Below are positions 3,001 through 9,000 of a DNA stretch of 64,000 nt, piece after piece. This DNA comes from Escherichia coli. Its GTDB lineage: Bacteria; Pseudomonadota; Gammaproteobacteria; Enterobacterales; Enterobacteriaceae. Made by a program: the position numbers. Each line of letters opens with the position of its first letter. Position 1 is the first letter of the stretch. The DNA lies in assembly GCF_044324875.1 (NCBI RefSeq), contig NZ_CP172185.1. One strand, 5' to 3'.

Positions 3001-6000
3001 GAGTATGCCAGCGGCGTGATTTGGGCGCAGAGTAAGTTCAGTTAACCTGGTGCTCATTTGATTGCCGGATGCGGCGTGAACGCCTTATCCGACCTGTGGA
3101 AACAGTGATATTTCCAGGTCGGATAATCAGCATCGCATCAGGCACAAATACCGAATGCCTACGACTACAGCGAAATACAGGTCCCCGCTTCGCCCGCCAG
3201 CGTCTCTTCAATCCGCGATAACGCCCCAATCCACGCGGGTTTACCACGGCTTCTGACATAGCCACTCACCGCCATTACCTTCGGCCCCATCGAACCATCG
3301 GCTTTGGCAAATGGCGCTAAATCATCCGGTGTGGCACGGCGAATGGCGCGTTGCTGCGGCGTTCCCCAGTTTTCATATACCGCATCAGCATCGGTGAGGA
3401 TCACCAGCCCATCGGCGTTAATCTGCTCGGCGAGCAACGCAGCGGCGAGATCTTTATCAATCACTGCTTCACTCCCTGCTCCGTCATCCGTCACAGGCAC
3501 ACCGCCGCCGCCACTGCAAATCACCACATGCCCCTCTTTGAGCAACAACTCGATGGCTTCGCTGTCGAGAATTTTACGCGGTTGCGGAGACGCTACCACC
3601 CGGCGCAAATATTTACCATCACGTTTCATCTGCCAGCCGTAAGCCGCTTCCAGTGCCTCTTGTTCTTCTGGCTGATAAACCGGACCGATAAACTTCTCTG
3701 GCTGCAAAAACGCCGGATCATCAGGCGAAACCTCAATGCGCGTCAGCACCGTCGTGACAGGCGGCATCTGCGGCTGTGCGCTCAAGCTCTGCGCCAGCAT
3801 ATAGCCAATCATCCCCTGACTTTCCGCCACCAGCACATCCAGCGGATACGGTTCTACCTCTTTCCACGCCAGATTCTGCAATGCCAGCAGCCCCACCTGC
3901 GGTCCGTTGCCGTGAACAATCGCCAGCCGATAAGAACGGGCCAGGCGCGCCAGCGCGGGTACAGCACTGGCAATATTACGATATTGATTTTCTGCCGTCA
4001 GCGCCTCACCGCGCTGGAGTAAGGCGTTGCCCCCAAGAGCCACAACCAGTGTTTTCATGGTTTTCCTTGTAATAATTGTTGACCAAGCCAGAACCCCAGC
4101 AGCGTATCTGCCCCTGACGTATGCCCCAGCGCCAGCAGCGAATCAATTGCAACAGCGGTACGTTTCGGGCAACTCAGAGCATGGACAAAGTGCAGGAGTG
4201 GCGAGGCGAAATATCCTTGCGCGGCATAACGTAAATAACTGACGCTCACCGCTGTGGTAACGAGTTGAAGATTGTCGGAACAGGTAAAAAATGGGCGACC
4301 GGAGCGCGCATCTAAAGCGCCATAATACCAGGCCGCCAGCAGCATTCCGCTCAGCGTGTCATCATGACTCGGCGTTAATCCCGGACCTTTGCCCAGCCAG
4401 TGCCGCCAGTCGGTCTTCACGCCATTGAGCGCGGCCTGAAAACAGTGGCGAAACTGGCGTAACTCAGCAGGAAGCGGATCGCCTGCCGCCAACGCCAGTG
4501 GCCCGAAAAGCCCGGTTTCCTCCGCGCGTTGCATCCATGCCGCTGCAAGCGGTTGAGGATGCGCAGGCGGCGTAATACGCAGCAAACAATAACGCTGTGG
4601 CTGTTTAACCGTGAAACGCCCGAGGCGAATCCCTTGAGCCACAACCTGTGGTCGTTCATTGCCGCATAATCCACCGCATAACGCATCGAATTGCGCGCGG
4701 CGAAGCACCCATCCTCCGGGGCCGAAACCACTACCCTGACGATGCAGCGTTAACAGTTCGCCGCTTTCCGTCATCAGGTTAATCGCCCGTCGCCACACTC
4801 CCGCTAACCGCCAGGACTGGCAATAATTCGGTGCGCTACGGCTGGCAAGCAGAGGATGGATGAACGTCATTGCGCGTTCCTCAACCTATCCCCATGCTTG
4901 CAGCCAGTGCTTCCAGCGCCTGTTCAAAGCAGGCCAACGGTGCCCGCACAGTGCCTGCGCCAATCTGCCCGATCCCCGCCTCTTTATGGGCGATACCGGT
5001 ATTGATGAGTGGCGTAATGCCGGTTTCTACCACGCGACGAATATCCAGCCCCGGCACGCGCCCTGAAAATCCCAGCTTGGGATCTGCAACTGCATATTGC
5101 GTTCAAGGTAAATTTCCGCCATCTCTTCAGATACCGCTCTGGCCGCTTCCATGCCACCCGCACCGACAAAGCGCGTTACGCCAGGCGCTGCGATCATTGC
5201 CGCACCTCCGATACCAAAGGTTTCGGTAATCGCGCTATCGCCCATATCCGGGTTCGCCTGCTCCTGCGAGAAGCCGGTGAAAAACAGACCTTGCGGAGTG
5301 TTTACAGGCGCAGTAAACCAGCGTTCGCCCAGCCCGCTGACCCGAATCCCGAACATATTGCCGTTGCGGGTCATAGCCGTAACGATGCTGCCTGAGCGGA
5401 TCATCGCGCCAGCATCCATCGCCGCCTTGCAGTAGGCCATCGCGAGGTTGAGGAAGAACTGATCGGTCACGCTGAGGAAATCCATCACTTCCGCAATGTG
5501 CTGTTTATCATGATCGAGGCGAGCAATTTGTGGGGCCAGCGTACGCATTAACAGTGCTGAGGAAGCAATATTGCGTTGATGGAACTCATCGCCCATGGTA
5601 ATGCCCTGCGCCATCATCGCGGTGAGATCGATACCGCGCTCCATGCGCCCCAGCGCCGCGCTTAATACTGGCATTAACACATCGCGCATCCAGCGATGGC
5701 GAGTCAGGACATCTTCGCCGTAAGCGCCAAAACGCATCACTTTGCCGATACCTTCGTTGAGGTTGCAGTACGCCCGGTTGCCGTCGGTCACGTTCTCGAC
5801 CACCAGCATCGGCATACTGGCAGAAGTAATGCCGCCCATTGGCCCGACGGCATTCACATGGTGACAAGGAATGAAGTTCACTTCCCCCTGATCCAGCATT
5901 GCCAGCGCCTGCGCTTCATCTTTCGCCCAGCCTTCAAACAGACATGCGCCCACGCACGCCCCTTTCATGGGTCCGGTCATCTCCTGCCAGCGCATTGGCG

Positions 6001-9000
6001 GCCCGGCGTGAAGCAGTGTTTTGCCCTCGTTTAGTTCGCTGATAAGTGAAGAAGCCGGTTGCACATCCAGCCAGTGTGGACGAGCACGACGAATTTGTTC
6101 GATAACCGCAGCATTGGCTTGCGCCACTGATGTAAACATGGGAACCCCTTATTGCAAACGTTCTAATAAACGAGCCAGTTTTTTATTGCCGCCGGCGACT
6201 GGCGACCATTGGTAATGCACAACCGGTTTGCTGGCGCTTTGTAGCTCCAGCGCAAAGCTGCGTAATCCGATGTTAATCACGGCGACGTTTTCCAGTAATG
6301 ACGGTGTGTGTTGCTGTGCGGCAGGCGAGAGCGGATGAATTAACGCTGCCGCCAGCAAGGTGGCTTCCGGTAGCGAACTCACGACAGCAATCCCCGCATC
6401 TTCCAGCGTGGCGATTTGCTGCGAGCGGCATTGCGGGTCACGTTCGGTACCTGTCACCGTGGCAATGGCGTACAGCGGTTGGCTGTCTGAACGCGCGGCA
6501 CAGGCTTTTTGCCAGGCGCTCACCAGCGAGGCGGCAGGATCGGCGGTCGCACCGAAGCCAATCACGACATCAAGCAGCAACACGCGCACTTGCGGTTTAG
6601 CGCCGAGATCGGCAATTAACAGGTTGCGTAAGGTCGGGTCGATCATCGGATGGGGACGCCCGACGGTGTAAAAATCATCGCCCAGGTCGAGGATCTGATG
6701 TCCGTCGGCGTCGAGCATCATGCCGTGATGATGGGTATCGTCGGCTTCCACGCCAAGGTGTCCGGCAAGTAATCCCGCCGCTTCAGCAGCCAGCGTACCG
6801 CCGGTATACAAACCGCAAATAAATCCGCTGCTGACAGGTGCTATTGCGTTACGTCGCGCCGTGACGCGTGAAAGCAGGCAAGCCAGGCGTGCGGCCTCAT
6901 CCAGCGAGGAGGCAAACCAGACATTTTCGTCGCGGGCCACCGCCGGGGTATAACCTAAAAACAGCGCCACCGTCGGTTTGCCGGTTGCTTTCATGGCCTT
7001 AACAATTTTCAGACGCACAGCTTCGGCAGGTGGTTTTGAAACAAATGCCAGCACTTCGCTTTTCTCGTCTGCACTGAGCATTTCCAGCGCCGTCAGCGCA
7101 CTGATGCCGCCCACTTCACGGCTGAGGTCGCGGCCGCCAAGGCCAATCGCGTGAGTAATTCCCTCCCCTGCCAGCGCAATCTGCGAGCACAGCTCCTGAA
7201 TCCCGGTACCGGAAGCGCCAATGACGCCAATGTTGCCTTCCGGCATCACGTTAGCAAAAGCCAGCGGCGTGCCGGCAATCATCGACGTACCGCAGTCCGG
7301 CCCCATCACCAGCAAGCCTTTTTCCCGCGCGCGGGTTTTAAGTTGGATTTCATCTTCCAGCGTGACGTTATCGGAGAACATCATCACGTTGAGGTTGCGA
7401 TCCAGCGCCTGATTCGCCAGCTCCGCCGCATACTCGCCAGCCACTGAAATCAGCGCCAGACTGGCGTCGGGTAATTTCTGACAGGCACTGTCCCAGCGAC
7501 GCACCTGCGTCAACGCCTGGCTGCTGCCTGAACCCTGCGCCAGTTGTTTTAGCGCCTCTTCAAGCTGTTGCATAATCGCCTGCGCGATCCCCGCATCCGC
7601 CGCTTCGCTACGAATTGCCACGCAAATATCGTTCGGCGTGGCGTTATTAAAATCGTCATGCCAGAAACCTGTCGTCTCTAATAACGCTTTATTGGCGGGC
7701 GTACCCATCATTACAGAAACATCATCAACATTTTCTGATTCGCTTAGTTTTCGTGAAATAATCATTAAACTGACCGAATCCTGAAAACACCCTTTTTTAA
7801 TAAAGGCGTGGATCATAACAACTCCTTAAAAATTGCACCCATGGCAATTGCACGAGCAGTGTTAATGTGGCGATTACGGTATCGATGACAACGAGCAAAT
7901 AAGGTGATGAATATCACACAGGGATTATTAACAAAAGAATTCAAATAACCGCCAGGCTATTACGTGTTATTTTTTAATAAGCGTGGTTGTTTTAAAAACC
8001 AGGTTAAAAGCGAGCGGATTATCAAATAAATTCTAACTATATTTTTTTGCCTGTCTGGATCACATAATCCAGATATTTTCCCTGTATGTTAATTGCAGTC
8101 ATGCTTCACACCGTCGTTAAAAAGGAAGACAGATGAAAATCAGTCGGGAAACACTCCACCAGCTAATTGAGAATAAACTCTGCCAGGCTGGGTTAAAACG
8201 TGAGCACGCTGCAACCGTGGCTGAAGTATTGGTTTACGCCGATGCCAGAGGGATCCACTCTCATGGCGCGGTGCGTGTTGAATACTACGCAGAACGCATT
8301 TCAAAAGGCGGCACCAACCGCGAACCGGAGTTTCGTCTTGAAGAAACCGGGCCGTGTTCGGCAATTTTACATGCCGACAATGCCGCCGGACAGGTCGCGG
8401 CTAAAATGGGTATGGAACATGCCATCAAAACCGCCCAGCAAAAAGGCGTTACGGTGGTCGGTATCAGCCGGATGGGTCACAGCGGCGCAATCTCTTATTT
8501 TGTGCAGCAGGCAGCCCGCGCCGGATTAATTGGTATTTCGATGTGCCAGTCCGATCCAATGGTTGTGCCGTTTGGCGGCGCGGAAATTTACTACGGAACT
8601 AACCCACTGGCCTTTGCCGCGCCGGGAGAAGGCGACGAGATCCTTACCTTTGATATGGCGACTACCGTACAGGCATGGGGAAAAGTGCTCGACGCCCGCT
8701 CGCGTAATATGTCTATCCCGGATACCTGGGCGGTCGATAAAAACGGAGCACCAACAACCGATCCATTTGCAGTTAACGCCCTGCTCCCTGCCGCCGGACC
8801 GAAAGGGTATGGCCTGATGATGATGATTGACGTCCTCTCAGGCGTCTTACTCGGCTTACCGTTCGGGCGACAGGTTAGTTCGATGTATGACGATTTACAC
8901 GCCGGGCGTAATTTGGGGCAATTACATATCGTTATTAACCCGAACTTTTTCTCCTCCAGCGAATTATTTCGTCAACATCTTAGCCAGACCATGCGCGAAT

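Follow-up and report, generated by a model that had tools for sequence, protein, structure and literature searches.

The 64,000-nt stretch of Escherichia coli DNA analysed here (contig NZ_CP172185.1 of RefSeq assembly GCF_044324875.1; the window) carries the genes fdrA-ylbE-ylbF-ybcF between allD and purK, in the same order as K-12. The first three of these genes each supply one subunit of the three-subunit enzyme oxamic transcarbamylase, and have been renamed allF, allG and allH; they share an operon with allK (ybcF), which encodes a catabolic carbamate kinase (PMC11326118). In the window, the features of this operon are the following:

6149..7816, minus strand: fdrA/allF, 555 aa, intact, the first gene of the allFGHK operon (gap-free over its full length against K-12, no internal stops)
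4881..6139, minus strand: ylbE/allG as a whole, 1259 nt, frameshifted relative to the 1260-nt gene (end-to-end alignment to E. coli N3 and K-12)
5027..6139, minus strand: upstream frame of allG, with a 370-aa product (ORF list and three-frame translation)
5052..5053, minus strand: deletion junction, lacking the T of codon 363 (CTG, Leu) (MAFFT alignment with the N3 and K-12 genes)
4881..5051, minus strand: downstream part of allG, now out of frame (ORF list, three-frame translation and codon-level view)
4055..4870, minus strand: ylbF/allH, 271 aa, intact (alignment to K-12)
3165..4058, minus strand: ybcF/allK, catabolic carbamate kinase, 297 aa, intact, the last gene of the operon (operon as in PMC11326118)

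The other genes from ppiB to cueR align with their K-12 counterparts without gaps and have no internal stops, the set of intact genes comprising allA, allB, allC, allD, allE, allF, allH, allK, allR, allS, allW, gcl, hyi, glxR and glxK. A wider decay of the allantoin cluster was considered, and none was found from ppiB to cueR; allG is a single lesion. The one partial exception among the gap-free alignments is selU, which follows the K-12 gene only to nt 1086 of 1095 and then has a different end.

How is the reading of allG broken? The upstream frame opens with an ATG at 6139 and closes with a TAG at 5027-5029 on the minus strand; its 370-aa product consists of native residues 1-362 (5054-6139), followed by the eight out-of-frame residues RGWIFVAW. 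A second frame stays open through this region as far as the native stop at 4881-4883, 10 nt upstream of the ylbF/allH start (4870), and encodes native residues 364-419 (4884-5051); gene callers give this downstream remnant as a GTG-started ORF of 58 aa at 4881-5057. A preliminary description of this DNA had the long frame ending at 5027 and an alternate frame running on to a stop just upstream of ylbF, and both statements are borne out by these frames. The same is true of its expectation that a 1-nt correction would yield an intact DUF1116 protein of about 420 aa, as one inserted base gives a 419-aa AllG. The 1259 nt of the locus plus one base make 1260 nt, that is, 419 codons and a stop, which equals the length of ylbE in both N3 and K-12.

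For the exact position of the lesion, the window gene was aligned by MAFFT with ylbE of E. coli N3 and of K-12 MG1655 (NC_000913.3), both of which are annotated as intact genes of 1260 nt. The alignment runs from end to end with a single gap of 1 nt. On the gene strand, the window reads GCGTGCC^GGGGCTGG at the junction, where N3 and K-12 have GCGTGCCTGGGGCTGG. The missing base is the second base of codon 363, between the C at 5053 and the G at 5052, or between gene nt 1087|1088; this base is a single T between CC and GGGG and belongs to no homopolymer, and the stop codon lies 8 codons past the gap. The comparison with intact orthologs thus pinpoints the indel to one T lost at 5052/5053, just beyond the range of 5060-5075 that had been given for the break, and about 20-25 nt away from the CCCAAGCTGGG region in which the shift point had been placed. 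The latter motif (5071-5081) is identical in the window, N3 and K-12, and is uninvolved in the lesion.

The window protein matches the Pfam family PF06545 (AllG, DUF1116) with 327 bits at a cut-off of 27, the match extending over residues 87-302 and the full profile (1-215), and this region is wholly retained in the 370-aa product. With K-12 AllG (YlbE, b4572/P77129) it has in common the PF06545 match, the same place in the allFGHK operon and a DNA identity of 97.9%, but differs in that the K-12 protein has 419 aa, whereas the window allele provides 362 native and 8 wrong residues. In K-12, deletion of allG abolished the formation of oxamate from allantoin and raised oxalate (PMC11326118). With a product of 370 aa and residues 363-419 out of frame, the window gene does not encode a full-length member of the family; it is a broken family member, a pseudogene.

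That the window might simply be K-12 is ruled out by identities of 95.7-99% in its genes (97.9% in ylbE, 95.7-99% in the neighbouring genes) and by the intact 1260-nt ylbE of the current K-12 record, NC_000913.3. Among 5,420 E. coli records, identity in ylbE reaches 98.7% at most; over the first 25 kb of the window, it is 98.0% with the best complete genome. The window contains none of the MLST genes. The preliminary description has ylbE annotated as interrupted in K-12, which is historically sound, as MG1655 laboratory stocks were found to carry a one-base insertion at base 253 of ylbE relative to the older reference (PMC4404585). This old interruption concerns the same gene and is also a single-base frame problem; however, it sits at base 253 rather than at nt 1087|1088, while the lineage described here is not K-12, and it has no bearing on the window. 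The lesion of this lineage is to be kept apart from the old K-12 artefact. What the latter does explain is that annotation pipelines have passed on the name 'protein, C-ter fragment, truncated protein', under which the 58-aa remnant ORF is found in public assemblies. Both fragments have already been deposited there as separate proteins, in GCA_900482385.1 as SRB09175.1 and SRB09188.1.

Is the missing base a mutation or an error? From the 5,420 E. coli records, 39 full-length matches were sampled, each of which exceeds the query by 1 nt. A 101-nt query across the junction yielded 99.0% identity at best, the top matches listed covering 102 nt of the record. A shorter query of 36 nt with the junction at its centre, which must match by an exact 28-mer across it, failed to hit any of 5,426 complete E. 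coli genomes, and an exact 39-nt junction search in one representative genome per species found nothing either. The exact 370-aa product is present on about 133 contigs and the exact 58-aa remnant ORF on 135, the sources being the NCBI assembly GCA_900482385.1 and Logan run assemblies with ERR and SRR accessions. Three loci with the 370-aa product, from three different samples, differ from the window by only 1-3 bases over 6-7 kb, and thus represent one clone that has been sequenced many times. The T-restored protein of 419 aa is present exactly on three contigs. GCA_024755885.1, in which the gene is intact, differs from the window over 7.26 kb by 2 mismatches and the one base; as this near-identical genome has the T, the intact state appears to be ancestral and the deletion recent within a clonal lineage. 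Since the difference from more than 5,000 orthologues is established base by base, chance is not at issue.

An error of sequencing or assembly, with the gene intact in the organism, would have the classic form of a single-base indel, and the site indeed adjoins a G run (CC^GGGG). However, the missing base is a lone T and not part of the homopolymer, the identical 370-aa product is found on about 133 contigs in independent assemblies from ENA and SRA submissions, and the near-identical isolate has the T, so that the same kind of data resolves both alleles. An error is therefore very improbable. Of the two readings offered by the preliminary description, a strain pseudogene or a sequencing error, the former stands, as a pseudogene of a lineage, while the latter falls with the number and independence of these assemblies. 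An indel with an early stop, reproduced in independent assemblies and accompanied by an intact close relative, is what characterizes a frameshift pseudogene. From the agreement between assemblies, we consider it very probable that the frame break is a genuine, recent and lineage-specific deletion of 1 nt, which makes allG a pseudogene.

The frameshift removes the last 57 residues of the protein, 363-419. In an alignment of 23-24 homologous sequences from Enterobacterales and Orbaceae, 71-93% identical, 35 of these 57 columns are invariant (61%), as compared with 164 of the 362 upstream (45%), so that, by this alignment, no other part of the family is as conserved as residues 363-419. They include the motif VETGITPLINTGIAH...G.GQ.GAGTVR. 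The aligned homologues all have 418-426 aa, and nearly all listed matches cover 99-100% of the query; with orthologues of this length and a strongly conserved C-terminus, the conserved full-length protein is longer than the 370-aa form, which disposes of the finding that the preliminary description had named as a refutation. The lost segment also aligns closely with the only solved relative, PDB 3CLQ (Enterococcus faecalis V583, DUF1116), which matches over residues 2-416 with an E value of 5e-112 and 45% identity, and has a TM score of 0.83-0.84 to the predicted model. It is a full-length homologue with the pattern ETG..P.INT.IAHKE.GIG.IGAG, which is lost in the window; it differs in coming from another organism and in being an intact, conserved protein without an assigned function. 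In the structure search, 3CLQ was the only significant match, and nothing was added on function. The AlphaFold model has a mean pLDDT of 76.5 and predicts, for residues 365-415, a helix, a hairpin of two strands and then a long helix, at a pLDDT of about 70-93; it is poorly confident for residues 310-362, which leaves the packing of the C-terminal elements uncertain.

Could function be maintained in spite of the frameshift? The truncated AllG of 370 aa might work as a functional length variant, its C-terminal 57 residues being dispensable; the Pfam AllG domain (87-302) is complete in it, and the allele persists in many isolates. Against such a dispensable C-terminus stand the higher share of invariant columns in 363-419 than upstream, a conservation that reaches as far as the Firmicute homologue at 45% identity, and the narrow length range of the 23 homologues, and we regard it as quite improbable. 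Recoding, in turn, would restore function through a -1 ribosomal frameshift, or through separate translation of the 58-aa ORF (GTG at 5057) and reassembly of the pieces. It could build on the overlap of the two frames by 31 nt (5027-5057) and on the GTG of the remnant ORF, which lies exactly at the lesion with a weak AGGG 3 nt upstream. However, a reading by codons found no slippery heptamer of the type X XXY YYZ in an overlap window of roughly 80 nt, the Shine-Dalgarno-like motif ahead of the 58-aa ORF is weak and badly placed, and the homologues are read in one frame throughout. Moreover, the break is present in 0 of the 5,426 complete E. coli genomes and absent from the near-identical isolate, and is thus not a conserved recoding site. 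Programmed -1 frameshifting in allG is unlikely, and a restoration of function by recoding in either form is exceedingly improbable.

What would the loss of allG entail? With the T of codon 363 missing, the frame shifts, eight wrong residues are appended before the stop at 5027-5029, and residues 363-419 remain unmade. Since these residues build conserved secondary structure and are the best-conserved segment of the family, the truncated AllG is most likely inactive or unstable. AllG is required for oxamic transcarbamylase; the lineage thus probably lacks this activity and, with it, the branch of anaerobic allantoin catabolism that leads to oxamate. [quoted passage not shown] The genes for the release of ammonia (allB, allC, allE) and for the glyoxylate/glycerate branch (allA, gcl, hyi, glxR, glxK) remain intact, and these parts of the pathway should still work. 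The effect may also extend to the rest of the operon: allH begins 156 nt after the premature allG stop, with a GAGGA Shine-Dalgarno-like motif of its own some 8 nt ahead of its ATG, and we infer that this untranslated stretch may reduce the expression of allH and allK through polarity. A scan of 4700-5300 for promoters and terminators found none, and so gives no evidence that the lesion has created either.

Near-identical public contigs with the frameshifted allele number about 133, as against 3 with the repaired protein, and the question arises whether the loss of AllG was selected rather than being neutral decay; we consider such selection unlikely. If it took place, the block of oxamic transcarbamylase would send ureidoglycolate into the intact glyoxylate/glycerate branch and away from oxamate, a dead-end product. 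A precedent for such a rerouting is given by the K-12 allG deletion and, as reported, by an evolved FdrA variant (PMC8550087).

The finding is a genuine but ordinary lineage-specific frameshift pseudogene, in a gene whose function is known; literature searches not aimed at this allele turned up no paper describing it. Beyond correct annotation, its importance is small. [quoted passage not shown] The one-base deletion itself could serve to mark the clone.

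At the site occupied by rhsD in K-12 (MG1655, NC_000913.3), the departure of the window from the reference begins within a gene:

23173-24279, + strand: selU, with a C-terminal end unlike that of K-12

The selU alignment breaks off 9 nt short of the K-12 stop, giving a product of 368 aa as compared with 364 aa in K-12, and this divergent end is the start of the region that replaces K-12 rhsD. Between selU and ybbP, the tested K-12 rhsD-region genes rhsD, ybbC and ylbG have no match in the window; instead, 24331-27658 (- strand) contains a type VI secretion effector of 667 aa, in which an Hcp domain is fused to a Tle1-like phospholipase domain, and after it two DUF2931 paralogues of 240 and 222 aa, probably immunity proteins.

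While ybbJ and cueR are adjacent in K-12, they lie about 3.4 kb apart in the window (36260-39660), and this interval matches none of the K-12 genes tested. It includes the following feature:

37570-38955, + strand: putative trimeric autotransporter adhesin of 461 aa, anchored by a YadA-like membrane domain

For two small ORFs in the same interval, Pfam gave no match. The bordering ybbJ is just 88.9% identical to its K-12 counterpart, a low value that may mark a recombination boundary.

From cueR onward, none of the K-12 genes tested against the window, ybaT, glsA and copA among them, gave a match. This part carries a giant ORF and, downstream on the same strand, two further genes:

43409-63940, - strand: giant ORF of 6,843 aa, reaching almost to the end of the window
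41243-43405, - strand: ABC transporter for type I secretion, 720 aa
40071-41246, - strand: HlyD-family protein, 391 aa

The giant ORF combines a BapA_N prefix domain with FG-GAP repeats and no fewer than 25 Ig-like repeats of the Big_13 family; at the DNA level, no tandem repeats with a score of 200 or more were found. It is presumably similar to OI-28, the RTX/adhesin island of O157:H7.

The 90% protein cluster containing the 370-aa YlbE fragment unites 555-aa FdrA and 419-aa YlbE members, and its representative is an FdrA protein. Some database matches are fused or mis-called products, such as one of 548 aa with AllG and AllH domains and one of 460 aa with AllF_N and AllG, which may represent further frameshift or stop-loss alleles in the fdrA-ylbE-ylbF-ybcF operon.
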